Below are positions 1 to 64,000 of a DNA stretch of 64,000 nt, piece by piece. The first letter of the stretch is position 1. Every line of letters starts with the position of its first letter. The translations under genes were made by a program, and so were the position numbers. The notes under the pieces were generated by a model. That model saw only the letters and a list, made by a program, of their open reading frames with translations, ran no database searches and had not been told where the DNA came from. Origin of the DNA: Psammoneis japonica (Eukaryota); the NCBI GenBank assembly GCA_008632985.1, contig QPGO01000135.1, positions 1-64,000 on the forward strand, read 5' to 3'.

Positions 1-160
1 TTTGTTTTGGCGGTGTCATGTTTTTGTGTCAGTTTGTCCGTGGGTGTGTCATTTCCATGCTGACCTCACATTGATTTTTGTGCTTGGCAGTGTCATGTTG
101 TCCGTGCCCCCCTTTCCCATTTCCTTTTCCCCGCTCCCATTTGTCATGTGAGGGGAGGCT

Positions 161-613
161 TGATCAGCTGGGCTGCTTGTTTCAGCACTCAAATGCCAAG
201 CATGGCAGCAGCCATCGAGGCCGGCCACATGATGGTCGTCGTTGCAGCCTCTGCTGCAGCCAAGCAGCTGCACCCCGGCCACATTGCAGAAGATCCGGTG
301 CCGATGGTTTGGTTCCTGGACAGAGCAGCCCACCCACATGACTTTCTTGAATTGGCAAAAACAAGTCGGTCCTCAAGCCCTCCACTGCAGCGCGATCCGT
401 CGCCATGGAACATGAGCTTTCTGCCCAAGCGGGCCGACTCATCAAGTCTCGCTCGGCGATCAGACCACTCGATGGGCACCCACACTTTTTCCCCGCATTC
501 ACCATTGCACCACACTGTCCCAGTTGATCCAGGACAGCAGAACACCAGCGCTGCCATCCCCACCCCGGCCTCAATCACTTCCGCCACTTCGGGCTTTTCA
601 TCTGCCCAGATGA
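161..613 (+). pseudogene. Gypsy-B RNase H / integrase N-terminal remnant (deleted copy)
   Basis: Homologous to the longer copies at 11115-12335 and 39540-41160; frameshifted. Confidence 0.5.
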
Positions 614-1137
614 CTTCATTGGGGCATTGCAAGTCTCCTGCAGGTGCACAGAAAATGCAATGTTCAGCGATGAAGAAAAAGAGTGATGATGTTGCTTTGT
701 TTCTTCTGTCATGCCCGCTTGACCGACACGAAGCTTGGGCGCATTGCTTTGTGCGCCACTTGTCTTCCGTGTCTTGCAATCTTCAGAACACTTGCTTCTT
801 GCCAAAGGAGCTGTTGGAGATCCAGCGGAAAGCAGTGTGCACGATTTTTGCAAAGTGTGGGTGCAATCGCAGTGCAAAACATGATGCGCTGTTCGGACCA
901 TGTGATCTTGGTGGAGGTGGCTTTCGTTCGTTGGATGTGGAGCGTGGCACATCCCAGTGCACGCAGTTTCTCCGACACTGGCGCAGCTGTGGTCAGCCTC
1001 ATGTTCTGTCATGCATTGCAGTGGCGTGGGTGCGGCTTCAGTTGGGCACAGGCGTCAGCTTCTTGCAGGATGTTCAGCCCACACTGCCTCACTCCGAATC
1101 CAAATGGCCCATGTCTTTGCGATCATTTTTGGCTGAA
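614..1137 (+). pseudogene. Non-LTR retrotransposon fragment (region downstream of RT)
   Basis: SLGHCKSPAG...EAW...IQRKA...KCGCNR...LFGP.DLGGGGF...FLRHWR...IAVAW..LQLG...LPHSESKW.SLRSFL resembles diatom non-LTR polyprotein motifs with Tyr replaced by Cys/His. It interrupts the CCCAGATGATGTCATTCC site that is intact at ~10152. Confidence 0.7.
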
Positions 1138-1769
1138 TCATTCCTGAGCCACTCAGTCAAGAGTGCCACGAAGCTCTGGTTTTCTGTCGTCAAGCCCAGG
1201 AAATGTTTGGCGACGCCAACAAACAGCAGCTCAACAATGCCGCCCTTGAAGCCAACGATGACTCTTCTGTTGTTTCAGACCAGTCAGCTCCTCTCTGAAG
1301 ATTCTTCCTTGCTTTGCTGCATTCTCCATCTGCATCTTTCACAGCGCACCTCATTTCTGCATTTTGTTTCTCTCTTTCAGTTTTGCAAACATTCGCCAAA
1401 GTTTGTTTTGCACTTGAGCTGAGTTCTGTGCTTCACCCATTTCCCATTTCCCATTTTCCCTTCAGCCTCACCTTTTGGCCTTTGCCCGCTGTCCGCTGCC
1501 CAAACCCAGTTAAATTGACGCACAATTTTTTGTTTGGTGGTGTCATTTTTTTGTCAGTTTGTCTGTGGGTGTGTCATTTCCATGCTGACCTGACATTGAT
1601 TTTTGTGCTTGGCAGTGTCATGTTGTCCGTGCTCCCCTTTCCCATTTCCTTTTCCCCGCTCCCATTTGTCATGTGAGGGGAGGCTTGATGAGCTGGGCTG
1701 CCCGGTTGTTTCAGCGTTCAAGTGCCAAGCATGGCGGCGGCCATCGAGGAAGGCCACATGATGGTCGTC

Positions 1770-2345
1770 ATTGCTGACAGGATTTGAGCAAGATTTCAGT
1801 TTGTCGCGCACAATCATGTGTGCTCTCAGCTCCGGGCACACCGCGCGATGCAAATTGCTTTCAAGCCACGTGGCTCACAAGAACAACAACAGCAGTGCCG
1901 ACATCATGACACCAGTCTTTCGGCTCCTGCAACAGTCTCCACATGGAGACTCATCTGCCACTCAGACAGCAGTGAGGAGTCACTGTTTTCTTCCACCCAG
2001 TCATCTTCAACTTCTGTCAGATCAACAGTCTTGCTCATTCTTGTCCACTGAGCGTTCGTCATTGTCGTCGAGAAATTTTTTGATGACGTGCACAGCTGGC
2101 GGTGGAAGCACACATCTGCCTTCTTCGCCGCTGCATGCTGGGTTAAATCCACACATTTGGTTTTGTCCAACACCTCCCATCATTGCATGTGTTTGTTCAA
2201 CGGACATTTGTTTGGTCAGGAATTCCCGAATTCTCAGAAATCTGAGATTCCGGATTCCCTGCAGCAGATTCTGCCCTGGTTGGCAGACAGACCAATCCAT
2301 CTGCTCGCGCTCATGTGCACACGACATGAGCCCTTGACTCTGGCC
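1770..2345. repeat. Unidentified repeated module U (also ~20960-21535 and ~51460-52035)
   Basis: Three diverged copies; no recognisable domain. Confidence 0.7.
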
Positions 2346-5853: not shown

Positions 5854-6037
5854 TGAACAAACACTGCCATGACAGCCAAGAATTGGGTGCAAGACAAGAC
5901 AGAGTGTTGAACAGCATCAACAGGTTCTAGAATTGTGAGATGTCACGCTGCTGGGGCCACCAAACAAGCGACAGTGGACCAATCGCCAATGGTGCATGAA
6001 CTGCCCACATTTGTGACAGTGCATCAGCACTCATTCA
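5854..6037 (-). repeat. Copia-1 3' LTR
   Basis: Ungapped direct repeat of 9493-9676. Confidence 0.92.
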
Positions 6038-9000
6038 GTCCCCTCGAACTGACACCAGCTCCACTCAGGTCAGATCGACAGACAAATGCCACCTGATGCT
6101 GCCCTGTTCCAGGGCAGTGGCTGTGTTTTGGGGGTGGGAAAAGCCGCACCTGCGCGGCAAACCCGTTTGGTTTGTCCCCTTTTGGGACTTGCCACAGGGT
6201 GTGACTTATGATTTCCCGGAGCTTCGGTCCAGGCAACAACTTGGTTGGTGCGTCCGCTAGATTCGTGCGTCCATCTTCCCAAGCAATGCGCACTGTTCCA
6301 GCAGCTTGTGCCTCACGAGTCCTGTGACAGGCAATTGCATCATGCTTCTTCTTCAAAGTGGACTCTGGTTTAGTTGAGTTCTTGAAGACAGCTTCATTGT
6401 CGCAGAAAACGTCAGTGGCCCCATCCATGGGGATTCCGAGCATCCGAAGCTTGCAACGCAAGGCTTCAATTTGCTCCACTGCAGTCTTCATAGCCACAAA
6501 CTCCAACCCAAAAGTGGAGGACTCTACGGCATTCTGCCGCTTGGAGCAATGCAAGATGGGCGCTCGTTGGACAAATGTCAGGATCCCAGTGTGGGACCTG
6601 TGCATCACACGGCATCCAGCGTGATCAGCATCGACAAAGCAAGCAGTGGTCATGCTGTTTCCGCATGCCTCCGGCACATTCGGCGGCATTGGTTCAGCCG
6701 CGCCAGGGTGATGTTCTTCCCAATCACACTTGGCAAAGCGACTCTCGTCAAAGACGGGCTCAGTGTCATTGAACACTAGCGCAGACTTGGAATGAGCCTT
6801 CAAGCATGCAAAGACATGGAGCACCTCGTCCAGGTGTCCAACTCGTGGTGCCACTGAGCAGGAGGACATGAGCAAGACAGCGACAAAAATGTCCACTCAC
6901 CCCAGTTCAACCACCCACCGTAGCACACCGACAAGGCCTTGACAGCAGTCAGCCGTTTTGGCGTTCAACTCAGGTGAGCTGTCCAGTTCAGGCCTGTGTC
7001 CCGAGCTCAAGGGCGTCGACGCCTTCGTCGGAAGATGCCTGTCAGTTTTCTTGAGCTCCAATTCAAAATCAGCTAATGCCCTTTTGACATGAAGGTCAGA
7101 GGACATGGCCCAGCGTGTCTCACCGTCCGAGTCAGACAGCTGGTGCTTTCTGATCTGGGTGCCTGAGCACTCTTCCGGCTCGCAGACGCTTCCGTCCTTG
7201 AGCGCGCACCTAGAGCTCATGTAATCCATGACCTTCTGAGGTTCATGGGAGATGCACAACAAGTCGTCCACGTAGACAAGTGCACATTCCCAGTGCTTGA
7301 AGCCATCCGGCTTAACCGCAGCCCGCATCCAGACATCCGGGTCAGCCTTGCAAGACTCGAACCCAGCGCCACGCAGAGCAGCTGCCACATGTTCCCCAAA
7401 TCTTGCACCTGAAGATTTGAGACCATGCAAGGCCCGGACAATGATCACCGGCCTTCCTTCATTCTGCTTCCCAAATTCCAGGCCAGCAGTGGCACAACAC
7501 TTTTCCTTAGTGTGTGCATTCAAGCAGGCATTCTGAACGTCAGCACTCAGGACCTCCAGGTCATTCAGAGCTGCTGTGGTGAATGCTGTCTTAACGCTGT
7601 CACGCGACACCACGCTGGAACATGTCGATTCCTCAGGCGGATCGGTTTGATGGCCTCCGGCCACGAACCTCGCTTTACATTGGAGAGTGCTCTTGATGTC
7701 AAAGATCACATGACAGTCAATGTGTTTGCACCCGACCGGTGCAGCATCGTCATCGTGGAATTCGAACACAGGCATGACGTCACGCATTTCCTTCTCGATG
7801 GCTTTGAACCAGAAGTCGGTCCCCGTTCTGTTGTCTATCTCCACAGCTTCCTCAACAGATTTCGGGAGTTCAATTCCGAACTCATGCGCACGTTTCTAGT
7901 GACGCGACTTGACTTTCTTCAGGATCCTCGACCTGCGACGCAAGACGTCTCGGACCCACCAGTTGAAGGCTGGTTCACTGGCTGCTTTGTTCGCTGCAGC
8001 GTGCTCAGCAACCTCGACTGGGTTGGACTCCTTCAAATCCTTGAGAGGAACCCAGGATGCAGTCCCATCCTTCCATTCGACTTGCAGGTCCCAGCCTGCT
8101 GTCGTCCTCCTGGGAGCACGCCTGCCAGTCTCAGTCGTTGTGTGCCCGTCATCAGCCATTGCAGCACGGGCATCACGTCGGTGATCGACCATTTCCTCCA
8201 TGATCTGGCAGGCATTCCCTTCAGAGTCGATCTGAGCGAATGGGTTCTCTGCAATTACATTAGCAGCATGGGAATCAGTGGATCCATCAGGGAATTCCAC
8301 GTCGTGTGTTCTCGAGTCTAGGACAGGGTCATCGTTCCCAGTGCCAACAGGAACCCTGTCACCATCTCGCTTGCGTGCAATGACCCCAGCATGAGTCAGC
8401 TCGCCTCCACGTGGCAACATGACTTGAGCTGTGAGATGTTCATCTGGCCCTTCTGGGGTGTGCTCATCAGCTTCCAGTTTGGAAGCGTCAGGTTCCACGG
8501 GTTCAACGGCATCGTCCCATTCGTCCATGAAGTCGTCAGGGAGTTCAGGGAAGTCAGCACTGGCATCCTTTTCCGGGATGCTAAGCCATTCGATCAAAGC
8601 TTGATCGACCGATGCAAGATCCGTCTGGATCACCGGAGTTTTAAGGTCATCCTCCGGCATGGCCCATGCATCCTTCCGAATGATGGGTTTGCCTGATTCG
8701 GGCAAAATGATGAATGCCACATCGTCAGTGCAGTTGTCAGCTGCTCCGAGCCAACGGCCAATGCACTTCTTTTCGTGTGGGAACTCCGCCACAGGCATGC
8801 AGTGACAAACAGGTTGACACCAATCAAAGAGAGAGAGGGAAGAGATGTCGGGTGTCGAACCCGTCACCTCTTCTGGGACTCGTCCTCCCATGTCCGACAT
8901 GCTGGTCGCAATCATGCGACGGATGTCACACATCCATTTGGTGCTGTGGGACCAAAGTCGCCTGTGAGCGCCAGTCCGGCACAGAGTCGCACGGACTCTT

Positions 9001-9407
9001 TTCTTCAACTCACGAATGGATGCCTCGGCCAGGTTCTGCCAGGGGCTGCAAGGGGTGGACACCTCCTGGTGCATCCTGCATTCCTTGCAGATCTCCTTGG
9101 TCTGGCCTTCCACCATTTCCGGCACGCCATCCGACACAAGGACCTGCGGTGCGCCAATGTCATGTGTGAATGACATGACGGCATCCGGGTGGTCCTGTTT
9201 CCTCTTCCAAGGACAGAACCTGTCACACCCTCTTCCGTTGGCAAATGCGCTTCCTCCTGTCTCGCCATGTGTCGATTTAACCTTCAAAAACATTTGGTCG
9301 GAGTAGAGCAGTCCCTTGATCGCAGGGAACTTAAGCCAAGGGGCTTTCTTCCGAACTTTCCGTTTGGATGGTGTGCAGACATTACGGACCCCTGCCTGGG
9401 TCATCAC
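6024..9407 (-). pseudogene. pol: Copia-1 pol (integrase-RT-RNase H): one reading frame with two nonsense codons
   Basis: VLVSDG...SPWQNLAEASIRELK (IN); KARFVAGGH...DVQNACL...YVDDLL (RT); FVDADHAG...SKRQ..VESSTFG.EF...CDNEAV...NLAD.PTK (RNase H). ORFs 7896-9407, 6897-7844 and 6024-6896 are in frame. Confidence 0.93.
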
Positions 9408-9492
9408 TCCAAGGGTGTTCTTAGCGGCCGTCGTGCCGTTCGCAATGCCCGTTCCAGGCGATGAACATCACAGCGTGCTGGCTCTGAAAAAG

Positions 9493-12335: not shown

Positions 12336-13848
12336 ATGGATCTGCCCGGGTCAAATTGCGAGTGAGTTGAGGCTCAAATGTTGGTGCTGACAGATTGAGT
12401 CTTCTTGTGCCGCACTGCAGCCTCCATCAAGCATCTTCATTGTTGTGGCAGATGCCGCAGACTGCGGTCCTCATCACTCGTCAAAGCTCGCTTTGTGCTT
12501 GAGCTGAGTTCTGCACTTTGCCCATTTTCCATTTCCTTTTCCCTTCTCAGCTTTGCTTTCCCTTCAGCCTCACCTTTTGGCCTTTGCCCACTGTCCGCTG
12601 CCCGAACCCTGTCAAATTGACACATGTTTTTTTGTTTGGCGGTGTCATTTTTTTTGTCAATTTGTCTGTGGGTGTGTCATTTCCATGCTGACCTGACATT
12701 GGTGCTTGGTGGTGTCACGTTGTCCATGCTCCTCTCTCCCATTTCCTTTTCCCCACTCCCATTTGTCATGTGAGGGAAGGCTTGATCAGCTGGGCTGCTT
12801 GTCTCAGCACTCAAATGCCGAGCATGGCGGTGGCCATCGAGGCTGGCCACATGACAGCGGTCATTGCAGCCTCTGCTGCGATCAAGCAGCTGCGCCCCGG
12901 CGACATTGCAGAAGATCTGGTGCCGATGGTTTGGTTCCTGGACAGAGCAGCCCACCCACATGACTTTCTTGAATTGGCAAAAACAAGTCGGTCCTCAAGC
13001 CCTCCACGGCAGCGCGATCCGTCGCCATGGAACATGAGCTTTCTGCCCAATCGGGCCGACTCATCAAGTCTCGCTCGGCGATCAGACCACTCGATGGGCA
13101 CCCACACTTTTCCCCCGCATTCACCATTGCACCACACTGTCCCAGTTGATCCAGGACAGCAGAACACCAGCGCTGCCATCCCCACCCCGGCCTCAATCAC
13201 TTCCGCCACTTCAGGTTTTTCGTCTGCCCAGATGACTTCATTGGGGCATTGCAAGTCTGGCGATGAAGAAAAAGAGTGATGGTGTTGCTTTGTTTCTTCT
13301 GTCATGCCTGCTTGATCGACATGATGCAGCATGCCTCGCCACTGGACAACACGGCGAGACGTGCATGAGCCTCTTGTGCGTGGCAACGTGGCATTGTCAA
13401 CACACACCTGGGAAGCACGACCACAGGAGGGCGTGGCTCCAGGTCTCAGGCAATTCCAGAAGGATGCTAAGAGAGCATCCGTGTGAAGCACACTGGCCCG
13501 TCGTCTGGCCCACGATGGCAGCGTGATTCCACACGATGACATCACTCGTGCATGGCGCGTGATGGCTTGGTTCGCACGATCCACAATGCGAACGCACGAT
13601 CGATTTGATGCGATCCAAATGCGAACAAACAGGGACTTGGCAAGATTCCCCATTCGCACGATCCCACTTTCTCTGCTCTAAACTGGCTCACAATTTTCAC
13701 AACGACAAAGTCGTAACACATCTTCTTTTCAGCGCCCAGCACATGCATGGGGCACAGCAACATCACTCCCACATGTTGTGCGAGGCAACGAAATCTACAG
13801 AAACGAAACTACGAAATGTTGGCAGGACCAACAAATCTTAAAACGACC

Positions 13849-15285
13849 ATGAAGAAGCGGATTGAGCTGCCGATTCCGTTTGCACGGCCGGAGAAGAAAG
13901 AGCTGCAGCAGGGCGAGCACCAGACGTTCAAGCTGCGTAACAACCCTGCTGATCCGGATGGTCCAATGCACAAGATGGGCATTCCGCACCTTTCTGACGC
14001 GTTCCAGCCCCAGGTGGGACTCCGTGTGACATTTGGCCCGTAGAATTCTACGTGCGAGCTCCGTAGTACGAGAATTTAACCAATGGACATGTTTGTCTTC
14101 AACATCAAATAAACGGCCAAGTTTGTGGTGCAATTGTGCCTCTTGCCACTCGACGTTTTTGCAAATGCACCTGCCCTATGCGATTCTTAAGACATTGTAG
14201 AATCGCGCTGTAACAAAAAATGTCAAAAGTTTTTGGACGGATCGCTCAATGAGTGTACCGTAAAATGACACAAAATGTCAAAAAATCACGTAGAATTCTA
14301 CGTGCGCGACATACGACGAGATTCAAAAAACTGTCGATGTCACAGTTCAGCAGTGCGAGGTCCCACCTAGACCTGGAACGCGTCTTCTACGGCTACATGC
14401 GAGACACTCCCAATCTTTCTGTGCAACGTGGATCGCGTGCACGAAGGACAAAACATGACGACCGGGCCAGTGAAATTTGCCCTCATGCGTGACCTGCTGC
14501 AGGGCGATGCTCTGACGTCATTTGACAATGCCGCTGACAAGCAGGCATCCCAAACCAACGCCACGTGCGCAGCATGCATCGCGAAGCTAAAGGAAAGTGT
14601 CTTCCCACACAGGGCGGCACCTTTGCAGAAGCGTCATCTGAGGCGCTTCATGCGCAAGCCCGCAGAGGTTTCCACTCGTGACTGCATCGCGACGGCTGTT
14701 GAAATTAACGGCTGTGTCTCTCAGTTTCCACCCGTGACGGAGGATGGAGAAGCACTGGCACCATTGCCTGATGACAAACTGTGCGACATGTTCGAGTGCG
14801 GTGTGCCAAACGCATGGCAGAAGTTCATGACGCTACAGAATTTTGACCCGTTGGCGCATGCTGTCGCTGAATTTGTACAGTTCTGCGAGCGCATCGAGCA
14901 GGTCGAGCTTGCCGAAGGCAACCTGGACCAACATGCCAAGGTTCCACGCAAGCGGGGACATAGAACGGACAATCCTGAGTCATTGATCACGACCCAACGG
15001 AACACCCAGAAGTCGTGTGTGCCACACGGGACTGACTGTGGACATCATGCGGAGGATTGCCGTCAGCTCAAGCACCACGTGAAACGTGTCAAGACTGGAC
15101 ATTCCAGTGATGGAGGCAGCAAACCCAACACAAAACCTCAGAATGAGGAAGACATTGATGCTCTCATCGGATCGAAGGTCAAGGAGTTCTTTGCCAATGC
15201 TCAGAAAAAGCGCAAGGCACGTGAGGAGGAGCTCAATCACTTCCGCGACCTCAACACAAGTGATTCCGAAGACTCGGACACCTGA
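13849..15285 (+). pseudogene. gag: Gypsy-A gag interrupted by a MITE
   Basis: FKLRNNP...LLQGDAL..F...VFP.RA...QKRHLRRFMRKP...C..HG..CGH...DC knuckle. Confidence 0.85.
13996..14384. mobile_element. GAC-MITE, subfamily B (young, TA-rich copy)
   Basis: TIRs present; TSD TTCT; empty site at ~27865; perfect palindrome CACGTAGAATTCTACGTG at 14287-14304. Confidence 0.92.
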
Positions 15286-15333
15286 GAAGGGGGCCGACAC
15301 GATGCAGGTGGTTTTAACACATCAGATGAATGC

Positions 15334-18300
15334 ATGAATGAACAACTGAATTACCATCGTACACGTGTTGCAGGCCAATCCCGCAAACGAGTTAAAAAGA
15401 CTCATCTTGCTCCAATCTTGTTTGCAGCCATGAATGCCAAACATGGCAAGGGCAAGACTCAAACCATTGAGGCACCACCAGACAGTGGCGCCAGCAGTGC
15501 TCCACTCAACAGTCGACACTGCAAACGTCTGCGAAGCCATTCAACGGCTGAGACAAACTGGACTACGGTGGCAGGCTCGTTCAGTGCGTCCAACGACTGC
15601 ACCGTTAAATTTCGGTTACCAGAATTGTCCGAAACTGCAGAACTTAAACATGCCGTCCACGCACACAACGGAAAGTTGGGCAAGTGCGACATGATCATTG
15701 GACGTGACATTCTGGAGACACAAGGCATTGACATTGTCTTCTCTAAACAGATGACAGAGTGGCCATTGGTCAATGGAGAAGTGCCAATGAGGCACGCAGA
15801 TGCTGCGGTAGAAACCTCCTTCTATCTTCAAGATCCAGAAGCCTCATCTTCGGAAACCGACCGGATGTCACGCATTTCAGACGCTAAGTGCGCGCTGGCC
15901 TGCCTCAAGGACATAACGCGAGAGGCAATGGGACTTTCTGCAGTTCAACAAAACGACCTTTTGGCACCATTGAAATGCCATGAGTCCTCATTTGATGGGA
16001 CATTGGGAGAATGGAAGGGAGAACCCTGCCACATCCAACTCAAGGAGGGTGTAGAACCACACCACGCTCGTCCATGTAAAGTGCCTCGTGTGCACAAAGC
16101 TGCGCTGCGTAAAGAAGTAGAACGCCTGGCACGCATCGGTGTTCTCAAACGCGTTGACCGATCCCAATGGGCAGCTCCATCATTTGTCATGCCAAAGAAA
16201 GATTTAACGGTGCGCTTCATCAATGATTTGAGAGAGCCAAATGAACGGATCAAGCGATTGCCTCATCCAATTCCTCGTGTCCAAGACATGCCACTTGAGC
16301 TCGAAGGCTTCATGTGGGCCACATCGCTGGATTTAAATGTGGGCCATTGTCACATCCGATTGGACACTGATGGCAAGAAGCTCTGCACGCTCATCTTCCC
16401 GTGGGGCAAGCATGAGATGCAGGCATTGCCCATGGGATCATGCAACTCGCCAGACATTTTCCAAGAACGCATGTCAGGCTTGTTTGAAGATCTGTCGTTT
16501 GTTCGAACGCACTCAGATGACCTTCTCGTTGTGACGAAAGGCACCTGTGAAGATCACCTCAACAAACTTGAAGAAGTTTCATTGAGGGTCCAGAAAGCAG
16601 GGCTAAAAGTCAGTGCAACTAAATCTCACTTCTGTCAAACCCAATTGGAGTGCTTGGGTTGTCTGGTCAACAGAGACGGAGTGCGACCAACACCCAACAA
16701 AGTCGACGCCATTGAGCGAATCGTGACCCCAACCAACAAATGCGACCTGCGCTCATTTGTTGGCATGGTGAGCTGCTGCCGTGACACATGGATTAGACGT
16801 TCTGAAGTCTTGGCTCCGCCAACACGACTCGTAAGCGAGACTGTTGAGTGGGAGTGGACGTCCGTTGAAGACGAGGCGTTCGAAACCGTTAAACGGGTGA
16901 TGTCGGATGATGTTTTGTTGTCACATCCTGATTTTAATGAACCCTTTGAGACACATGCCGATGCCTCTAAATGTCAATTGGGAGCAGTCACATCCCAAGA
17001 CAATGAACCTGTCGCCTTTTACAGCAGAAAGCTCAACAGTGTGCAATTAAATTGTGCAACAACGGAGAGAGAATTGCTCGCCATTGTGGAGACGTTGAAA
17101 GAATTTCGAACAATTCTCCTTGGTCATCGCACAATTACACATGCTGATCATAAAAATCTTACGTGCAAAGCATTCAATGCCGAGCGCGTCATGCGCTGGC
17201 GGTTGATGTGCGAAGAATGCGGTCCCGAATTACGCTGTGTTGAGGGCACCCACAACCCAGTCGCTGACGCTCTTGGTCGCCTTCGACCAGCACCCAGCTT
17301 GCCTTCCGAGGCCAATCCGGATGTAAAAGACACTCCATCGAGTCATCCTTTGCATGAAGCTTTTAATGCAGACGCGCAAGATGAGATGTCTCTGCCTGTT
17401 GGCTTCAAGCGCATTCAAAAAGCACAACAAAAGGACAAGCGCCTGCTCTCACGAGCTGAGGACTCGTCCAACTGCTCCATTCGCGCGCATCGTGGGGGAG
17501 GGTCATCACGACAGTTAATCTGTCATAAGGACAAAATCGCAGTGCCACAGTCATTGCAGGTTCCGCTAACTGAATGGTGCCACGAGACACTGTGTCATCC
17601 AGGTGAGACACGTGCGGAAATGTCTGTTGCCCAGCACTTCTGCTGGCCTGGCATGAGGTCTACGGTGCATTCTACGTGCATCAAGTGCGATCGATGCCAG
17701 AAGACAAAACGCCGAATGCAGCATTGTGGGAAGCCACCAGAAAAGGTCGCAGAGATAATTCCATGGGAGACTCCATGCATGGATGTGACAGGGCCACATA
17801 AAATTCAAAGACGCGGAAAGGACACTTTGCAATTGTGGGCAGTCACAATGATTGACCCAGCAACCGGATGGTTCGAGATTGAAGAAGTGTCTGCGAAACG
17901 CGCAGACGTCGCAGCAAACGTCGTGGAACAAACGTGGCCATGCAGACATCCGTGGCCAACCCAGGTGGTTTATGACCGTGGGACAGAATTTATGGCAGAA
18001 TTCAGCCAGATGATTAAAAATGACTGTGGGATTTTGAAGAAACCCACAAGCAAACAGAATCCACAGGCGAATGCCACAGTGGAACGTGCACACCAGACAC
18101 TTGGCAACATGGTGCGTTCCTTTTCAGCACAGGGTGTGGAACTGGACAAAGATGACCCATGGAGTGGCATCCTCTCCGCAGTGGCCTTTGCCATCAGAGC
18201 TGCGGCACATGCGACCACGCGTGCAAGTCCCATGCAATTGGTCTTCGGACGCGATGCAGTTTCATCTGTTGCCCATCGTGCCAAGTGGAAGCGCGCAAGA

Positions 18301-19462
18301 TGAGATGTCTCTGCCCATTAGCTTCAAGCACATTCAAAAAGCACAACAAAAGGACAAGCGCCTGCTCTTACGAGCTGAGGACTCGTCCGACCACTCCATT
18401 CGCACGCATCATGGGGGAGGGTCATCACGACAGTTAATCTGTCATAAGGACAAAATCGCAGTGCCACAGTCATTGCAGGTTCCGCTAACTGAATGGTGCC
18501 ATGAGACACTGTGTCATCCAGGTGAGACACGCACGGAAACATCTGTTGCCCAGCACTTCTGTTGGCCTGGTGTGAGGTCTACGGTGCATTCTATGTGCGT
18601 TAAGTGCGATCGATGCCAGAAGACAAAACGCCGAACGCAGCATTGTGGGAAGCCACCAGAAAAGGTCGCAGAGACAATTCCATGGGAGACTCCATGCATG
18701 GATGTGACAGGGCCATATAAAATTCAAAGACGCGGAAAGGACACTTTGCAATTGTGGGCAGTCACAATGATTGACCCAGCAACCGGATGGTTCGAGATTG
18801 AAGAAGTGTCTGCGAAACGCGCAGACGTCGCAGCAAACGTCGTGGAACAAACGTGGCCATGCAGACATCCGTGGCCAACCCAGGTGGTTTATGACCGTGG
18901 GACAGAATTTATGGCAGAATTCAGCCAGATGATTAAAAATGACTGTGGGATTTTGAAGAAACCCACAAGCAAACAGAATCCACAGGCGAGTGCCACAGTG
19001 GAACGTGCACACCAGACACTTGGCAACATGGTGCATTCCTTTTCAGCACAGGGTGTGGAACTGGACGAAGATGACCCATGGAGTGGCATCCTCTCTGCAG
19101 TGGCCTTCGCCATTGGAGCTGTGGCACATGTGACCACGCGTGTGAGTCCCATGCAATTGGTCTTCGGACGCAATGCGGTTTCATCTGTTGCCCATCGTGC
19201 CAAGTGGAAGCACATAGAAGCCAGAAAGCAGAAGCTTGTCCACTTGAACAACAAGCGTGAACATCAGAAACGCAAGGAGCATCAATGTGCCGTCGGGCAA
19301 TTGGTGCTTGTCAAACAGGAACAATCCTCTAAATGCGGTTCTGACAGCCATGCAGGACCCGCCAGAGTTGTCCGTGTGTGTGACAATGGCATGTTGCGCA
19401 TCCAGAACAGAGCGCTGATGGATGCGCACAATCTACGGCAGATTGCACCCCATCACCAGCAA
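15334..19462 (+). pseudogene. pol: Gypsy-A pol (protease, RT, RNase H, integrase) with an internal 919-bp duplication
   Basis: PDSGA; DMIIGRD; SLDLNVGHCHI; HSDD (YLDD site); HADAS.CQLG; FYSRKL; ADALGR; H...H...C..C; YDRGTEF; ERAHQTL. Confidence 0.93.
17373..19210 (+). repeat. Tandem duplication (919-bp period) of the integrase region
   Basis: 17402 GCTTCAAGC matches 18321; the junction at ~18291 shifts the frame. Confidence 0.9.
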
Positions 19463-19932
19463 CACATCCTGTCACTCAACGGCCCTGATCATGGGGGAGT
19501 GTGCAGCATGCCTCGCTGCTGGACAACACAGCGAGACCGTGCATGAGCCTCTTGCACGTGGCAACGCAGTGTTGTTAACACGCACCTGGGAAGCATGACC
19601 AAAGGAGGGCGTGGCTCTGGGTCTTAGGCAATTCCAGAAGGATGCCAAGAGAGCATCCGTGTGAAGCACACCAGCCCGTCGTCTGGCCCACGATGGTGGC
19701 GTGATTCCACACGATGACATCACTCATGCACAGCGCATGATGGCTTGGTTCGCATGATCCACAATGCGAACGCACGATCGATTTGATGCGATCCAAATGC
19801 GAACGAATGGGGATTTGGCAAGATTCCCCATTCGCACGATCCCACTTTCTCTACTCTAAACCAGCTCACAATTTTCACATCGACAAAGTCGCAACACATC
19901 TTCTTTTCAGCGCCTGGTGCATGCATGGGGCA

Positions 19933-24933: not shown

Positions 24934-24987
24934 CCTGACCCCAACCCCAACCCCAACCCTGACCCCTGACCCCAACCCCAACCCCAA
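24934..24987 (+). repeat. Eroded (CCCTAA)n telomere-type tract
   Basis: About 9 units, all CCCCAA or CCCTGA types. Confidence 0.75.
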
Positions 24988-29281: not shown

Positions 29282-29317
29282 GAAGGGGGCCGACACGACA
29301 CAGGTGGTTTTAATGCA

Positions 29318-37440: not shown

Positions 37441-37519
37441 CCTGGCCCCAACCCCAACCCCAACCCTGACCCCAACCCCTGACCCCAACCCTGACCCCTG
37501 GCCCCAACCCCAACCCCAA
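37441..37519 (+). repeat. Eroded (CCCTAA)n telomere-type tract (longest copy)
   Basis: About 13 units of CCCCAA, CCCTGA or CCCTGG; none intact. Confidence 0.78.
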
Positions 37520-52474: not shown

Positions 52475-55400
52475 ATGGTTCTGACCAGACAGCAACAAAT
52501 CGATGGCCTCGAGCACATCCTGGGCACTGTTCTGAATCAAGCCGCAGACAGTCCACTGCACTCTGCTCTCAACATTGACAGAACTGACTCGCATCAGGAC
52601 CTCTTTGCTTTTACTCCGACGCAACTGGATGCCCTTGTTTGCAATGACAGTGCCAATCAAATGCCCTTGCCACGTGGTTGCAAAGCACAGACAGCTGCGC
52701 TGATTAGCCTGCACATGGCAAAAGTGCGCGGCAGCACCAATGTCAGCAACAACCCCCAATTGTTCACACACAAGGAGTTCACCAACTGTCGTCTCAGTCC
52801 TGAGCACGCAGCGTCCCTCTCCATGGGCACAGCACCTTCTGCCCCCATTCCTGGCTTGTTGCCACCCAAACCACATGACCCCATGCATGACTTGAAACAA
52901 GGCATCAAACGCGACCCACTCACCTTTGTGCTTCTCAAGTCTGACAAACAGTGGCACACGTGGCACACCTCCATCATTGCACAGGCCCGCTCCCACAAAG
53001 TTGACCGCATTCTTGATCCGAAGCACAAGCCCTCTGCAGCTGAGGACAAGGCCCTGTTCGATGAACAACAGAAGCACATGTTCATTGTGCTCGAATGCAT
53101 CTTGCAGAGTGACAAAGGCAAGGCACTCTTTTGTGAACATGTTGGCTCCTCTGATGCTCAAGCAGTGTGTCGACGCGTTCCAGCTCTAGGTGGGACCTCG
53201 CACTGCTGAACTGTGACACAAATCCTCGGCACGGACCATTTCTTGGCTGGCCAGAAACGTGTCATGCTTGAGAACTCTGTTCAACTGTCAAAGAAATCCT
53301 CGGCACGGACCATTTCTTGGCTGGCCAGAAACGTGTCATGCTTGAGAACTCTGTTCACCCTGTCGAAGAACTGTGCTTGGCAAAGAATCAGGCCGATCAG
53401 TTTCACGCGCAGAATGGCAAGGGCCTTTCTTGTGAGCAGTGCCATGGACTCCTGCTTTCTGCCATGGCACAGCACAACAGCACGTTTGCCCCCAAGACGG
53501 CTCCTTGTGCTCCGCACCGTGCCATCTGCAAACATGACCTGGCCCCCAATGACCCTGACGACGATGCATTCTTCAACATCAACAGTGATGTTGACATCAT
53601 CCAAGCTCATGCTGTGCAAACTCACGGCAACTCCCTTGCCAGGGAACAATGGCATCGCATTCCGCCGGACCATCAGCACATTTGGGACACCTTGCCCCAG
53701 CCCACCAAGGCCATCATTCTTGGCTCGCACGCCGCCCACACGGGCAACTGCCATGACTTGACGGCGGTCAACCTGCACAACCTCCGCATTGGCAGCAATG
53801 GCGATGTCAACTTGTCCGCCAACACTCACGATCTTGCATCGGCCTCTGCACAATCCAACGCCACAGCCAACGCAGCCGATGCTAACCCCATTCTGGCTCA
53901 TCTCACCAGGTGCAAGCCTCTGCCACCCAGTGACTTGCAACTTCTCCTTGCACCTGAGCTGCCTCCTTCTGCCCGTTCTGGAGAGAAACCCCCCAGTGCA
54001 GCATGCCTCGCCACTGGACAACACGGCGAGACCATGCACAAGCCTCTTGTACGTGGCAACGTGGCATTGTAACACGTGCCTGGGAAGCACGACCACAGGA
54101 GGGCGTGGCTCTAGGTCTCAGGCAATTCCAGAAGGATGCTAAGAGAGCATCCGTGTGAAGCACACCAGCCCGTCGTCTGGCCCACGATGGTGGCGTGATT
54201 CCACACGATGACATCACTCGTGCATGGCGCGTGATGGCTTGATTCGCACGATCCACAATGCGAGCGCACGATCGATTTGATGCGATCCAAATGCGAACGA
54301 ACAGGGATTTGGCAAGATTCCCTGTTCACACGATCCCATTTTCTCTGCTCTAAACTAGCTCATGATTTTCACAACGACAAAGTCGCAACACATCTTCTTT
54401 TTCAGCGCCCAGTGCATGCATGGGGCACCAGATTTGCACCTTTCGTCTGCTCTGACGCAAAGCCCGACGACACTGACATTGAGATCAATGGTCATGAACA
54501 CCATCATGTCAACAACCACAATGTCGTCTGCTCTGCCTCAACCCACAAATCCACTTGCAAAGGTGCCCACGTGAATCGCGGTGCAAACAGCGGTGTTGCC
54601 AGTGATGATGTTCATGTCATTGCTCGCGCTGGTTGCCAGGTTGATGTCAAAGGTGTCGACAATTGCCAGCTGGTTGATGTTCCCATTGTCGCTGTGGGTG
54701 GTGTCATCCACACACAACGTGGCCCCATCATCGCCACTCTTCACCAGCATGCCTGCACTGGAAAGGGCAAGACCATGCATTCTTGCGGTCAACTTGAGCG
54801 GCACAAACATGACATCAATGATCGGCCCATCAAGGTCCCCAACGGTCTGCAGCGCATCACCACATTGACAGATGCATCATCCCGATTGACATCAAAGGCG
54901 GCCTTCTGCACATTGCCATGCTCCACACTGATGCCAAATGGGACACCTTGCCACACGCCATCCTCACAGGTGACGACACTTGGGACCCATCTGTCTTCGA
55001 CCACCAGCTCGCCAACAATGAGACGTGGCATGATGCTGCATCTGACATCCAGGCCAACCCGACTGCCAACCACTTTGACGAGTTCGGCAACCATTGCCAC
55101 CGTCATGTCGTCAACAATGCCATGCTTGTGGACTCCGTCCTTGATGACCACCTGCTCCCGACGTCCAATTTCTTCTGCAAATGCCATGAGCATGAGATCA
55201 ATCCAAAGGACCCCAACTTTGAGTCTCTGCGCCCTTGTTTTGGCTTTCTTCCAAAGGACACTGTCTGCCGCACTTTTGATTGCACGACACACAGCACGCA
55301 CTTGAAAAAGGCGCGCAAGTCGCCCAACCCGGCTCTTGACGTCCACTGATGCAATGAACCCGTTGCCACCGACACGGTGCACTCTGACACCCCCGCTGTT

Positions 55401-57040: not shown

Positions 57041-58470
57041 TCGCAGGGAGACAACTCAAATGTCTGCCTCAACCTGGATGATTCCAACTGGCCGCCCAAA
57101 CAGTGTTGATCACACGGTTGCTTTGCTGGCATTGCTGAGCACATGGGCCACCAAATGACGTTCAAGATTCTTTCTGACAACACTCAGAATGTTCTCTGCC
57201 ATTCCAATGTGCACTCTGCCTGTGAGATCCGTCTGCTCCAAACCTGCGTCTTGATCCTCCTGATGAAAAATCTGCTGCACCCATCATTAAATCCCGGCAC
57301 GACTCCAAGGATTTGCCGGATTCACCAGATGGGGAGGCAATCAGGATGCCCAAAATGCCGGTCTTTGACCCCGAGGACATCATCGGACGTGCCTTCCTCA
57401 TGAAGCCACAAGAGGATGGACAACACCACAGAGCCCACATCATCAAAGCCATTGAGGACCATGACTGGAAAATTGGAGGCAATCTTGAGCTGGTCAAGTT
57501 CATTTGCTCCACAAACAATGACGAATGTGAGGAAGTCCCATCCTGCAACAACGTCATGCACCACATCAAGCAAGAAGAGGAGGACACCACCCTCTGGAAG
57601 TTCCGATGCATCGCATCACACGAAGGACCATTGCAACCCCATGATCCCTCCTGAAAAGGCTCAAGCCACAATGTCATGCTTGAGTGGGAGAATGGGGAGA
57701 TCTGATCCAAACCCCTTGCCGTCATTGCCAAGGATGATCCTGTCACATGTGCCATCTGCCCACATGAGCATGGCCTCCTTGAAACTGAAGGATGGAGGCA
57801 TTTTTGCAAGATGGCCCTGCATCAGAAGAAGCTGTTCCGCATGGCCAACCAAGCCAAGTTGCGCTCCTTTTGAAATGCACCACAATGCAAGTGTGGATGT
57901 GAAGTGCCGCGGGACTGCAAGCATGCCTTGGCCCTTGATGAGCGCAATGGCAGCTGCAAGTGGGGAGGTGCAACAGACCTCAAGATGACTCAGCTTGATG
58001 AGCACGAGGTCTTCCATGACTGTTGACATTGCAAAGATTCCAGCACTCCGCTGGGACACAAGAAGATCTGGGTGCATCTTGTCTGCAATGTCAAAAATGA
58101 CGGACGGCACAAAGCAAGGCTTGTTGCCAATGGACACCTCACAGACGTGCCCGTCGACAGTGTCTGTTCCGGAGCAGTGTCTCTTTGCGGCCTGCAAATG
58201 ATGATCTTCCTGGCCAAACTCAACAAACTGGAGACTTGGGCCACCAACAATGGGAATGCCTCTCTTGAAGCTGCGACCAAGGAGAAACTGTGCATTGCAG
58301 CAGGCCCTGAATTCGGCGAGCTGGAAGGACACATCCTTGTCATCCACAAGGCCTTGTGCCGACTCTGCAGCTCTGGCCTCAGATGGCATGAACGCTTTGC
58401 CGATTGCTTGCATGCTGAAGGCTTCTTCCCGCGCAAGCCAAACCCAACATCTGGCTGTGCAGGAATGGTC
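57041..58470 (+). pseudogene. pol: Copia-2 integrase C-terminus and RT (the segment missing from the other copies)
   Basis: GHQMTFKIL; IIGRAFL..QEDGQ; WKFRCIASHEGPL; DDPVTCAI; HLVCNVKNDGRHKARLVA.GHLT. Confidence 0.88.
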
Positions 58471-60841: not shown

Positions 60842-61019
60842 ATTGACACACAAATTTTTGTTTGGCGGTGTCATGTTTTTGTGTCAGTTTGTCTGTGGGT
60901 GTGTCATTTCCATGCTGACCTGACATTGATTTTTGTGCTTGGCAGTGTCACATTGTCCGTGCCCCCCTTTCCCATTTCCTTTTCCCTGCTCCCATTTGTC
61001 ATGTGAGGGGAGGCTTGAT

Positions 61020-63150
61020 CAGCTGGGCTGCTTGTTTCAGCACTCAAATGCCAAGCATGGCAGCAGCCATCGAGGCCGGCCACATGACGATTGTCATTGC
61101 AGCCTCTGCTGCAATCAAACAGCTGCACCCCGGCCACGACTTGTTCCAGACTTGGGTGGCGCGCACATGCCCCTTTTCGCAGAAAAAACAATCATTTGTG
61201 CTTTGTTCAACATCGTGCACATTTCATCACATTGATCACATCAATTGCTTGCAAGCAAAATGAACAGAATGAACTTGAACAAACAAACAGCCAAACGGCC
61301 ATGGCTTTCAGTGACCATGACGGCCCACTTTTTTCAGCCTTGTGGAAAATTCAATGTCATGATGAGGACCTTTGTATTTGATGTAGTCTGAGGCATCAAC
61401 AACAACAGTGAAAATGCTTGCCACAGGCTGCAGCGCGGCACAATGATGCCAAATCTGTCAGCAACAACAATTGAGCATCAGCTCACTCACAATTTGCCTC
61501 CAAGGACCATTTCTTTGCCATCACCATGTACATTTCCTCAACATGTTCGACTGATTAAGTGCATCAATCGTTCATGCCTTTCAAACAGTGAAAAATGGTC
61601 CAAAGTTGATGCCATTGCGTGGGCTGAGCTGCCCTTCTTCTCACGTCATCCGAAACTTGTCAATCAATGCATGTTTTGTTCAATCCGTTGAATGACAGTT
61701 GCATTCACGCATTTTAACCAAAGATAAATTGTGTCATGTTAGAGGTTTAATTTGTGCACAAGAGTGGTGTTTTGTGCGTTTCTCCACACATTGAGACATC
61801 TGCAAATCGCTCCTCAGAAAACAGAGCTCTCAACTTACGGCACAATTTAGCGACTGACAACTGAGTCCATCCACAGTTTCGAATACATGGGTGCACGCAC
61901 AAGACCTTTCTGCATGTGCCCACAACAACACATTTGAAAATTGTCATGTTTTTACCATCGAAAATGGTGCCGCAAGTGTGGACCGCGCGTTTCATGCGGA
62001 AAAGGGTCATTTTTTCGCACGTGAGCGCACCTGAGTCTGGAACAAGTCCCACATTGCAGAAGATCCGGCGCCGATGGTTTGGTTCCTGAACAGAGCGGCA
62101 CATCCACATGACTTTCTTGAATTGGCAAAAACATGTCGGTCCTCAAGCCCTCCGTGGCAGTGCGATCCGTCGCCACTGAGCACAAGTTCTCTGCTCAAGC
62201 GAGCCAGCTCATCAAGTCTCGTTCGGCGATCAAACCACTTGATGGGCACCCGCACTTCCCCTCTGCATTCCTGGCCCCAAGCGTCATGCATCCATGAAAG
62301 GAGCAACCTTTTTGTCAGGTGCCGTTTGCAGTGTGGGATGGGCAAGAGGTTGTGTGCCATCCGATCCAGATGCGCGAGCTTCTGTGGCTGCCGGGCTTCT
62401 TGGAGCTGTCCATCGGCCGACTGGGTGTGCCAACAGAGCTGATTCTCATGCAAGGACTCCAACAAACACAGGAAATTGCAGCAGCCACCCATGTGACCAC
62501 TGTTTTGTTTCATGCCAAGGCGCCATTGCACCACACTGTCCCAGTTGACCCAGGACAACAGAGCATCAACGCCGCCATTCCCGCCCCGGCTGCACTCACG
62601 TTGGCGGCCACACCACTTGACACAGCAACAATTTTGTTTCTTCCATCAGATTGTGTGCTTGCCAGCTGCACCTTGTACAAAGCACATGCGCAACTTCGCT
62701 TGCTGCCGTGCAATGAACCATGGTCAGCGGTCTTTTGGATCTTTGGTCTCCTGGCAGAGTGCCATCAATGGCAGGGGACATCAAAATCCTTGCATGTCTG
62801 GATGGCATGACAAGTGTTGCCCTCGTGGGCTGCTTCTAAAAAATTGTTTTTGTGGAAGAGGCAGCACGTGTGGTGATGGCAAAGTTCTCTGTGGCAGTGG
62901 GGTTGCCCCCGTTGATTGTGGTGGATGTGGGCTCACTCTTCACGGGCATCTTCATCCAGCTGTTCAAAATCATCCAAGTTCCAGTGTTGCCGGTGCTGCA
63001 AGAAAATCATTGGGTGGCACGCAATGAGCAGCTCCACTGACATTTAAACAAGGTGGTGTGCATCAATGTGGCCAACACATCGTCAATGGCATTGTGGAAG
63101 CAAGCAGCGCATTTCACCTTGTGCGCCTGGGGTGCATCGCCAACCAACAT
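61020..63150 (+). pseudogene. pol: Gypsy-B RNase H-integrase remnant
   Basis: GLPPLIVVDVGSLFTGIF...ENHWVARNEQLH*HLNKV. Confidence 0.7.
61138..62048. mobile_element. Longer (911-bp) relative of the GAC-MITEs
   Basis: TIR GACTTGTTCCAGACT..GGTG; TSD CCAC. Confidence 0.85.
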
Positions 63151-63504
63151 GATGGGTCTGCCCGGGTCAAATTGCGAGTGAGTTGAGGCTCAATTGTTGG
63201 TGCTGAAAGATTGAGTCTTCTTGTGCTGTGCTGCAGCCTCCATCAAGCATCTTCATTGTTGCAGCAGATGCCGCAGACTGCCGCCCTCATCACTCTTCAA
63301 AGCTCGCTTTGTGCTTGAGCTGAGTTCTGCACTTTGCCTGTTTTCCATTTCCTTTTCCCTTCTCAGCTTTGCTTTCCCTTCAGCCTCACCTTTTGGCCTT
63401 TGCCCACTGTCCACTGCCCAAACCCTGTCAAATTGACACACAATTTTTTGTTTGGCGGTGTCATTTTTTTGTCAGTTTGTCTGTGGGTGTTTCATTTCCA
63501 TGCT

Positions 63505-64000
63505 TGCCTTGACAGAATGCCGAAGGTCGACAGTGATGGAGGCATGAAAGACTCCCTAAAGTGCCAGGACTGTGACAACACGAGCACTGGCAGATGAGAA
63601 AGTGAGAAGCAGATCTCAGAGAGATCTGCTCGTCTATCCACATGGTCCAGCCATCATCCGCATCCAGTCTGTCCATCATGCGATGGGCACAGATGGGCTG
63701 ACACCCTCCCCTGATCTGTGACATCTCAACACAGAGAACAGTGCAGATCAAACCAAAGAATGGGGATGATGTGAGGAAAAAATAGAGAGACTAGACACAG
63801 GACACGAGAAGTGTCCATGCCCAATGCGCCATCAAACAAGAGGGCAATGCGCAGCAGGGAGGCCACCGCAGAAAAAAATGTCAACAGCAGTGTCCCATCA
63901 TGCGTCGAGCGTGGCGAGCGTGTGGCACCCAGCCAAGGGCCTTGGTGAGGTCATCGCTGGGGTTGACAATGCCAGGAACATGTCTCGTGACAATCTTGCC
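63505..64000 (-). mobile_element. Copia-3 3' end: RNase H C-terminus (63881-64000), PPT and probable 3' LTR (63505-63703)
   Basis: Minus-strand translation GKIVTRHVPGIVNPSDDLTKALGWVPHARHARRMMGHCC*; PPT GATCAGGGGAGGG directly before TGTCA; runs off the window edge. Confidence 0.75.

Follow-up and report, generated by a model that had tools for sequence, protein, structure and literature searches.

The question raised by this locus is which process could have removed the TpA step from a whole stretch of DNA, coding or not. In the window, as the entire stretch of 64,000 nt that was analysed is called here, 385 TA dinucleotides are found against 3689 expected from base composition (observed/expected ratio, O/E, 0.10), with TG (O/E 1.62) and CA (1.61) enriched and CG depleted (0.66). 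The deficits of TA (-3304) and CG (-1459), 4763 in all, match the combined excesses of TG (+2344) and CA (+2563), 4907 in all. Every one of the 16 bins of 4 kb is depleted (TA O/E 0.01 to 0.31), as is every one of the 64 bins of 1 kb (rho_TpA ≤0.40), compared with a baseline of 0.42-0.86 for TA O/E in 80 metagenome Copia relatives. The loss of TA irrespective of coding status, which the first-pass annotation had reported, is thus confirmed as real and extreme.

The window consists of dead LTR retrotransposons along with unclassified repeats and has the following features:

1..64000, no strand: transposable element island, TpA-depleted throughout (O/E 0.10), TpG/CpA-enriched and moderately CpG-depleted (from composition)
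6027..9467, minus strand: Copia polyprotein frame, 1147 codons with 2 in-frame stops; RVT_2 at 6900-7895
13325..19932, plus strand: Gypsy element E1; LTRs at 13325-13755 and 19502-19932; TSD ATGA
15286-18300, plus strand: polyprotein frame of E1 with RVT_1, RNase H and integrase (Pfam)
17373-18292 and 18292-19211, plus strand: tandem duplication, within E1, of its integrase part
24938..24994, plus strand: telomere-like array of CCCCAA and CCCTGA units; second copy at 37441-37519
25004-25532 and 37939-38365: further Copia remnants
26757..33010, plus strand: Gypsy element E2; TSD CTTG; 3' LTR at 32579-33010; frame broken by stops
26757-26845 and 27255-27632, plus strand: 5' LTR of E2, split by an insertion of about 410 bp
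33011..36936, plus strand: older repeat block; duplicate at 41714-45664 with 95% identity
48756..49171, plus strand: Gypsy integrase remnant
53997..54427, plus strand: solo LTR of the same Gypsy family as E1 and E2; TSD CCAG
57826..58446, plus strand: second Copia reverse transcriptase remnant, degraded

Among the classes of elements previously listed as damaged, Gypsy and Copia are recovered, whereas the non-LTR and DNA elements are not: a Pfam search of all 215 stop-to-stop frames of at least 110 aa yielded no domains other than those of Gypsy and Copia. No rRNA, tRNA or host gene was found within the 64-kb window, nor is a deaminase gene encoded there, in agreement with the earlier statement that the window holds no responsible enzyme. 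The 215 open frames illustrate how TpA-stripped regions come to resemble coding DNA through the disappearance of TAA and TAG stops; homology-based transposon annotation fails in them as well, the codons for Tyr, Ile and Leu having been rewritten. In the Copia frame at 6027..9467, Tyr amounts to 0.26% of the residues, as against 3.76% in 30 homologues.

The direction of change was derived from 537 conserved columns of the Gypsy polyprotein aligned with 40 homologues, in which 97 changes were resolvable as single steps (22 more are multi-step and 6 ambiguous). A>G or T>C accounts for 76 of the 97, and 71 of these 76 lie in the TpA context, namely 38 A>G after T, producing TpG, and 33 T>C before A, producing CpA; the remaining changes include 5 other A>G, no other T>C, 8 of the CpG type and 12 transversions. 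For Copia, the TpA type makes up 25 of 54 resolved changes and 25 of the 27 A:T>G:C changes. Columns with conserved Tyr are now occupied by Cys (15), His (8), Trp (1) and Tyr (1) in Gypsy (25 columns) and by Cys (10), His (8), Trp (1) and Tyr (1) in Copia (20 columns), and between the two Gypsy blocks TA/TG and TA/CA pairs are balanced (28 vs 26). The direction is therefore from TA to TG or CA, on both strands about equally (38 vs 33), as had been surmised in the first-pass annotation; what the intact relatives have at the variable sites is Tyr (TAY) instead of CG. The telomere-like arrays are what would be expected of (CCCTAA)n in which each TA became CA or TG, and no CCCTAA unit is left in the array at 24938..24994.

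Two known cytosine-directed processes were considered and rejected. RIP, which changes C to T at CpA and thereby creates TpA, resembles the present case as a transition-only hypermutation of mobile DNA in ascomycete fungi that acts at one dinucleotide on both strands and wrecks coding capacity. Unlike RIP targets, however, the window loses TpA and gains CpA/TpG (O/E 0.10 and 1.6, respectively), and the polarised direction upholds the original dismissal of RIP. Deamination of the APOBEC type finds no counterpart either, with a single non-CpG C>T and no non-CpG G>A among the 97 Gypsy changes.

Decay of methylated CpG in silenced repeats also yields TpG and CpA, but it cannot remove TpA, and at the affected sites the intact relatives encode Tyr. 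Its contribution can be assessed from the two Gypsy copies, which were compared without a gap over 4069 bp and differ by 291 transitions vs 11 transversions. The alternation of CA, TG and TA at the same site, described before, is evident here, with 81 TG/CA, 17 TA/TG and 18 TA/CA sites, next to 205 CG/CG, 33 CG/TG, 35 CG/CA and no TA/CG sites. By our arithmetic, CpG decay predicts about 3 TG/CA sites, vs the 81 observed, so that it accounts for the deficit of CpG but not for that of TA, and its exclusion as the cause in the first-pass annotation holds. Arithmetic on the same pair indicates a mutation in no fewer than 197 of 322 ancestral-TA site-copies, compared with 68 of 546 for CpG and roughly 0.6% for all other positions. 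Conversion of TpA is near saturation and far quicker than CpG decay or background mutation, and ordinary CpG decay proceeds alongside it at a lower pace.

The two LTRs of one element are identical at integration, owing to the mechanism of reverse transcription, and any difference between them dates from the time thereafter. The three Gypsy insertions have different TSDs (ATGA, CTTG and CCAG), and their 432-bp LTR contains 26 variable TA-derived sites, at which the 5' and 3' LTRs agree in only 9 of 26 cases in E1 and 11 of 26 in E2. When the elements inserted, the rho_TpA of their LTRs was 0.91-0.97 or more; today it is 0.14-0.29. The Gypsy copies were accordingly mutated after integration. This bears on the idea that retrotransposon transcripts were edited by an ADAR-like enzyme (A to I after U) and the changes fixed by reverse transcription, for which one might invoke the retroelement nature of the identified targets and the ADAR-like preference for a 5' U/T (Mettrop et al., 2026; bioRxiv 10.64898/2026.01.13.699255). 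Such hyperediting before integration is contradicted by the LTRs of single elements, which differ at 17 of 26 (E1) and 15 of 26 (E2) TA-derived sites, by the equality of sense and antisense changes (38:33) and by the conversion of telomere-like repeats, and its probability is practically negligible.

The normal TpA content of the active source element when each copy inserted also bears on targeting. Since source copies escape, targeting by state rather than by sequence is indicated, and for this reason the silent chromatin state of integrated mobile DNA is the most likely determinant. An untargeted genome-wide bias against TpA, under which dead transposons would drift to equilibrium while selection keeps TA in active copies, would agree with the effect on the whole window, coding or not. 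It is nevertheless very unlikely, given that, in the active lineage, the rho_TpA of the non-coding LTR still stood at 0.91 or more upon insertion, which is hard to reconcile with a bias roughly a hundredfold faster than background, and that TpA is ordinary and the spectrum AT-biased in the rest of the Bigelowiella natans genome (Mettrop et al., 2026). The first-pass annotation had proposed instead a repeat-inactivation system; taken as a true counterpart of RIP, it would be triggered by repetition through homology sensing. Repetition is certainly extensive: 53,688 of the 64,000 bases (84%) have a second copy within the window, and 15,312 contigs from a public run match 20 kb of it, so the families must be very high in copy number. 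However, the source LTR of Gypsy had normal TpA at each of three insertions, even though the family by then existed in multiple copies, the parts that are single within the window (though possibly repeated elsewhere) are depleted to the same extent as those with a second copy (TA O/E 0.11 and 0.10), and the main hypermutable region of B. natans is single copy (Mettrop et al., 2026), all of which renders a repeat trigger unlikely. The older repeats are uninformative on targeting because TA was already gone when they were duplicated: over 3981 bp, the two copies of the older block differ at 3 TG/CA sites, with CpG accounting for 65 of the 112 mismatches, and as the copies share their TG/CA states, the loss of TA was complete before the duplication.

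The same comparison is relevant to a possible artefact, in which a modified base at TpA would be miscalled as TG or CA in the consensus; strand-dependent miscalls would indeed give equal numbers of TG and CA. Yet neither random nor context-fixed miscalls would give both 3 TG/CA differences per 3981 bp between segmental duplicates and 81 per 4069 bp between Gypsy copies. The read check suggested earlier, carried out on contigs of the public run (run X1), returned the same TA-poor sequence: 4019 of the 15,312 contigs are at least 99% alike to the window, although they possibly derive from the same sample as the assembly and so are not independent of it. Word depth is 59-259 for the listed pieces of this run, and G>A and C>T variant places number no more than 78 and 74, respectively, in 20 kb. 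A miscalling artefact is therefore extremely improbable.

The bases flanking TpA have a strong effect on its fate. The surviving TA dinucleotides of the window include 1 in ATAT and 87 in TTAA, and at polarised sites TA is retained in 1 of 19 ATAT and 41 of 63 TTAA, values that are overstated since sites changed alike in both copies are invisible. ATAT is nearly always lost and TTAA often spared, a hierarchy that any candidate enzyme must reproduce. In a comparison of the flank with the strand that is hit, the ratios were 18:10 and 18:12 (p 0.18 and 0.36), short of significance.

The first-pass annotation left open whether the pattern was undescribed; it is not, the hypermutation of TpA to TpG/CpA having been reported in B. 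natans, where A:T-to-G:C changes confined to TpA arise de novo in integrated, silent viral DNA (Mettrop et al., 2026). The direct evidence in that preprint comes from a region of an NCLDV (rho_TpA 0.45) and a virophage region; the long-term footprint consists of clustered 1-kb windows that are poor in TpA and rich in CpA+TpG, and TpA-poor coding sequences are enriched in RT and DDE domains. When the cut-offs of the preprint are applied here, the rho_TpA limit holds for all 64 bins and both limits hold for 48 of the 64. The two cases are alike in that almost only A>G/T>C changes occur, all at TpA in B. natans, with TpG or CpA resulting according to the strand. They differ in the targets, which in the window are LTR retrotransposons and unclassified repeats, in the far deeper depletion seen here (0.10 over 64 kb) and in the kind of evidence, experimental (de novo mutation) for B. 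natans and comparative for the window. The window thus appears to be a near-saturated new example of a recently described process, with retrotransposons as direct targets. Relative to the preprint, what is new here is the timing by LTR pairs, the hierarchy of flanking bases and the CpG decay running in parallel.

These observations are probably best explained by a host process that edits elements after their integration, with the same signature as in the viral DNA of B. natans. This process would convert TpA to TpG or CpA, the A of 5'-TA-3' in either strand undergoing an A:T to G:C transition, and would most likely be directed by the silent chromatin state of integrated mobile DNA and not by sequence repetition. 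As for the chemistry, it is tentatively suggested, with a confidence slightly short of even, that adenine is enzymatically deaminated to hypoxanthine in DNA, which would be read as G at the next replication.

Because TpA is palindromic, the sequence alone is equally compatible with an attack on A or on T. The T could be hydroxylated or glucosylated by an enzyme of the TET/JBP type, and the modified thymine could mispair with G or be misrepaired, resulting in T to C, seen as A to G in the opposite strand. Every observation on direction and LTRs fits this alternative equally well, the effect of the flanks, being a property of the site, could not be assigned to one strand, and thymine hypermodification with a preference for TpA occurs in dinoflagellate DNA. 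On the other hand, 5-hydroxymethyluracil opposite A is not strongly mutagenic, and we know of no thymine-modifying enzyme or modified base in the source of this DNA. The authors of the B. natans study, moreover, prefer deamination of adenine and point to an ADAT2 homologue (Mettrop et al., 2026). Attack on thymine has, on balance, a low but appreciable probability.

With respect to the preferred adenine deamination, the natural substrates of the known adenosine deaminases are RNAs, TadA and ADAT2-ADAT3 acting on A34 of tRNA after U33 and ADAR on dsRNA. Unlike for ADAT, the most favoured 3' neighbour in the window is T; to our knowledge, U at position 35 is present in no ADAT substrate anticodon. 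The resemblance of TadA/ADAT2-ADAT3 and ADAR to the activity sought here lies in the conversion of A to I, read as G, and in the U/T located 5' of the target (see also Mettrop et al., 2026). Targeted A:T to G:C hypermutation of DNA has so far been reported in only one preprint, of 2026, in which the enzyme is at the candidate stage.

To that process the window adds that LTR retrotransposons are hit after integrating, and it preserves the long-term residue, 64 kb that have lost 90% of their TpA. The atlas taxa associated with the Gypsy are a mixed set. Should the DNA come from an organism other than B. natans, the process extends further than has been reported. A more far-reaching and doubtful, though possible, reading is that the source is indeed a different organism and that TpA editing is a lineage-spanning eukaryotic defence, an adenine-side counterpart of RIP directed through chromatin at any integrated mobile DNA, retrotransposons included, which would read the duplex TpA step (the susceptibility of ATAT being much greater than that of TTAA) instead of a single-strand motif. 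If so, the editing would proceed to saturation and remodel repeats, for instance turning (TTAGGG)n into mixtures of TTGGGG and TCAGGG, and four Tyr-free Copia reverse transcriptases in other public data sets would represent further footprints of it.

The window contains 385 TA dinucleotides against the 3689 predicted by base composition, an observed/expected ratio (O/E) of 0.10 and a deficit far beyond chance; the respective O/E values of TG, CA and CG are 1.62, 1.61 and 0.66. The strong TA shortage throughout the sequence that had been claimed in the first-pass annotation is thus confirmed: TA O/E ranges from 0.01 to 0.31 across the sixteen 4-kb bins, 15 of the 64 one-kb bins lack TA altogether, and rho_TpA (the TpA measure per bin or LTR) does not exceed 0.40 in any of the 64. 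The deficits of 3304 TA and 1459 CG are balanced by excesses of 2344 TG and 2563 CA. TA O/E is 0.10 in the 53,688 bases that have a second copy within the window and 0.11 in the 10,312 bases that do not.

All 215 stop-to-stop frames of at least 110 aa on both strands (24 + 140 + 51 frames) were searched against Pfam. The domains detected in these frames are exclusively of LTR-retrotransposon types, with none of the non-LTR and DNA elements named in the first-pass annotation represented among the matches. No host gene was found in the window, and searches of it with Rfam (gathering threshold) and ARAGORN yielded no RNA family and no tRNA. The recognizable elements, located through Pfam and tblastn, are the following.

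13325-19932: Gypsy copy E1
26757-33010: Gypsy copy E2 (plus strand)
6027-9467, minus strand: Copia frame (Pfam), besides which there are weaker remnants of Copia reverse transcriptase (RT)
25004-25532, 37939-38365 and 57826-58446: further Copia RT remnants (tblastn)
48756-49171: Gypsy integrase remnant (tblastn)

The remainder of the window is mostly a mosaic of same-orientation repeats that are 82-96% alike. The homologues of the Gypsy elements in the Protein Atlas come from mixed taxa (Oomycota, Cnidaria, Bacillariophyta). Many long open frames exist because TAA and TAG stops have been lost, and most of the 215 frames belong to no family. The longest unexplained one (34562-36796, 745 aa) has no Pfam match, and a comparison with proteins of 409-1304 aa gave no homologue at E ≤ 0.001; it is overlapped by a 460-aa frame on the opposite strand. 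In a public sequencing run whose contigs match the window, by far the greatest summed contig depth falls on 13996-14384 and 26846-27254 (95,367 in bin 13668-14334 and 47,389 in bin 27008-27674), and these two stretches, the second of which splits the 5′ LTR of E2, are probably small elements present in very high copy number.

The direction of change can be read from conserved protein positions. The polyprotein frame of E1 (15286-18300) was aligned with 40 homologues from public metagenomes that are 50-56% identical to it. At the 25 columns with Tyr in at least 70% of the homologues, the window encodes Cys 15 times, His 8 times, and Trp and Tyr once each, such that Tyr makes up 0.4% of its Gypsy protein vs 3.75% of the homologues. 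The active-site motif of RTs is YxDD, and the translation of the E1 RT reads HSDD. Codon-based back-inference over 537 conserved columns resolved 97 changes to a single step, as listed below, in addition to 22 multi-step and 6 ambiguous changes.

A>G after T: 38
T>C before A: 33
A>G in other contexts: 5
T>C in other contexts: 0
CpG-type: 8
non-CpG C>T: 1
transversions: 12

The Copia frame, with X at its two stops, was compared with 30 full-length homologues; the 20 conserved-Tyr columns contain 10 Cys, 8 His, 1 Trp and 1 Tyr, and the resolved changes comprise 25 of the TpA type, 13 of the CpG type, 8 other transitions and 8 transversions. Taken together, the Tyr columns and the resolved changes in the Gypsy and Copia frames indicate that TA is the ancestral state, that the two strands are about equally affected, and that the process has reached two retrotransposon superfamilies. 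The proposal in the first-pass annotation that TA had been converted to TG and CA on both strands was largely right, given the replacement of Tyr by Cys and His and the 38 vs 33 changes by strand. RIP creates TpA, so that the process seen here, which destroys it, is the opposite of RIP. GC-biased gene conversion can be rejected because it is not TpA-specific, whereas 71 of the 76 A:T>G:C changes sit at TpA. Selection against UpA in RNA is rejected as well, considering that conserved Tyr residues, including those in RT motifs, have been destroyed and that the LTRs have changed too.

The LTRs also date the changes relative to integration. Perfect 4-bp target-site duplications flank E1 (ATGA), E2 (CTTG) and a solo LTR of the same Gypsy family at 53997-54427 (CCAG), and being distinct, they identify three separate insertions. 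Owing to the mechanism of reverse transcription, both LTRs of one element are identical at integration. Among the five LTR copies (432 bp), there are 26 variable TA-derived sites, at none of which TA is kept in all five, and 17 sites of the CpG type. At the TA-derived sites, the 5′ and 3′ LTRs agree at 9 of 26 in E1 and 11 of 26 in E2, no more than unrelated pairs do (8-17 of 25-26). This disagreement, together with the separate insertions, implies that TA was changed copy by copy in chromosomal DNA after integration, which rules out RNA editing ahead of reverse transcription. From site counts only, rho_TpA of the LTRs was at least 0.91-0.97 at insertion, compared to 0.14-0.29 today; the source element, when active, was without TA depletion. 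This undepleted state at insertion also argues against a uniform bias with long exposure of the active lineage. Separately, the 5′ LTRs of E1 (13325-13755) and E2 (26757-26845 plus 27255-27632) agree at 17 of 26 sites, with 8-14 for the other LTR pairs, a similarity for which chance may be responsible, or else gene conversion or an effect of position.

The E1/E2 alignment (4069 bp, gap-free) includes 291 transitions and 11 transversions. Its dinucleotide pairs are TA/TA (45), TA/TG (17), TA/CA (18), TG/CA (81), CG/CG (205), CG/TG (33), CG/CA (35) and TA/CG (0). Independent CpG decay, judged by the 205 sites that both copies retain and the 68 that one of them has lost, predicts only about 3 TG/CA sites as opposed to the 81 observed and is accordingly rejected as their source; those beyond about 3 must derive from TA changed independently in each copy. 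In this pair, at least 197 of 322 ancestral TA site-copies have changed; the corresponding figures are 68 of 546 for CpG site-copies and about 0.6% for the other positions. There is a second, slower process in the same DNA, which converts CpG to TpG or CpA, and this CpG loss suggests that cytosines of the island are methylated. CpG O/E is 0.79-0.94 in the younger Gypsy bins vs 0.55-0.65 in the older bins. The repeat blocks 33011-36936 and 41714-45664 show 112 differences, of which 65 are of the CpG type, with only 3 TG/CA and 3 TA/CA sites, so that TA was lost already before the duplication, and CpG decay has continued since. In E1, the integrase part is additionally duplicated head to tail (17373-18292 and 18292-19211; 920 bp, 37 mismatches). 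The mismatches include 7 TG/CA sites, 5 of the TA type and 16 of the CpG type, which places this duplication in the course of ongoing TA loss.

The sharing of nearly all TG/CA states by the old duplicates, in the presence of 81 such differences between the Gypsy copies, fits neither random nor context-fixed miscalls. Of the public sequencing runs listed, one DNA run contains the sequence, two runs belong to its sample, and there is no RNA run. On 13001-33000, 4019 of 15,312 contigs of the public run, which is possibly the assembly's own source and hence not independent, are at least 99% alike to the window, with word depths of 59-259 among the contig pieces listed. Variant places in this region include 78 G>A and 74 C>T, where many hundreds would be expected had the reads TA at positions at which the window has TG or CA. 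TA in raw reads had been named as an observation that would speak against the process; the contigs of this run, possibly the source of the assembly, side with the TA-poor sequence.

Survival of TA depends on the flanking bases. Window-wide, the surviving sites number 1 for ATAT, 10 for ATAC/GTAT, 14 for ATAG/CTAT and 87 for TTAA. Among the 229 E1/E2 sites at which ancestral TA is inferable, TA is kept at 1 of 19 ATAT and 41 of 63 TTAA site-copies, retention being overstated because changes of the same kind in both copies are invisible. For the relationship between flank and the strand changed, the counts are 18:10 and 18:12 (p 0.18 and 0.36); the 229-site set, which carries an ascertainment bias, was left out for strand direction. 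Two interstitial telomere-like arrays, 24938-24994 and 37441-37519, consist of 6 and 8 CCCCAA units and 2 and 3 CCCTGA units, respectively, and neither contains a CCCTAA unit. Judged by its composition, this is the product expected if (CCCTAA)n had undergone conversion of every TA to CA or TG.

In the literature, the only description of a TpA to TpG/CpA signature that we found is a preprint on Bigelowiella natans (Mettrop et al., bioRxiv 10.64898/2026.01.13.699255). According to this preprint, 231 of 302 nuclear single-nucleotide mutations in mutation-accumulation lines fell within two integrated viral regions; these mutations all lie at TpA and, with few exceptions, are A>G or T>C. The larger of the two regions is present in a single copy and is transcriptionally silent. 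The preprint also reports 124 genomic clusters of TpA-poor, CpA- and TpG-rich 1-kb windows and enrichment of RT and DDE domains in TpA-poor CDS, and its authors suggest that a DNA adenine deaminase resembling ADAT2 is responsible. When the B. natans cut-offs, as they appear there, are applied to the present window, 64 of 64 bins pass for rho_TpA and 48 of 64 pass both. A Rhizoctonia paper concerns RIP indices (PMC7884421), and the passages of a Lemnamoeba paper contain no TpA analysis and describe (AC)n:(GT)n microsatellites as unusually frequent in two rhizarians, one of them B. natans (PMC13746701). It is speculation that such tracts originate from TpA to CpA/TpG conversion of (TA)n; the window has no (AC)n:(GT)n array.

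Public metagenomes were scanned with a query alignment in which the Copia RT of the window was combined with four Tyr-free relatives. The best 80 of 164 Copia relatives have TA O/E of 0.42-0.86, with the lowest values in contigs that also are CpG-poor, and strong TA depletion was detected in none of these 80, which do not include the contigs of the Tyr-free proteins. Among 150 Copia RT cluster representatives, 4 are free or nearly free of Tyr (0-0.4%):

P0135 and P0269 (Logan), P0183 and P0228 (JGI/IMG): Tyr-free Copia RTs, 41-46% identical to the RT of the window

These four have Cys or His at conserved Tyr motifs, for example, ALCGLK or ALHGLK for ALYGLK, and accordingly the same footprint is present in public data besides the window, whether these come from its own source organism or from others.

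The TpA hypermutation pattern is already described, in preprint form, and the window is a further example of this very recently described kind. The observations demonstrate a TpA-specific A:T>G:C process that acts on both strands of integrated DNA and is fast, near-saturating and flank-dependent. The most likely chemistry would be deamination of adenine in DNA to hypoxanthine; attack on the T of TpA would leave an identical footprint in the sequence. The integrated DNA would be targeted by virtue of its silent state rather than its repetition, the trigger proposed in the first-pass annotation, because the source copies kept TA and the B. natans target is single copy.
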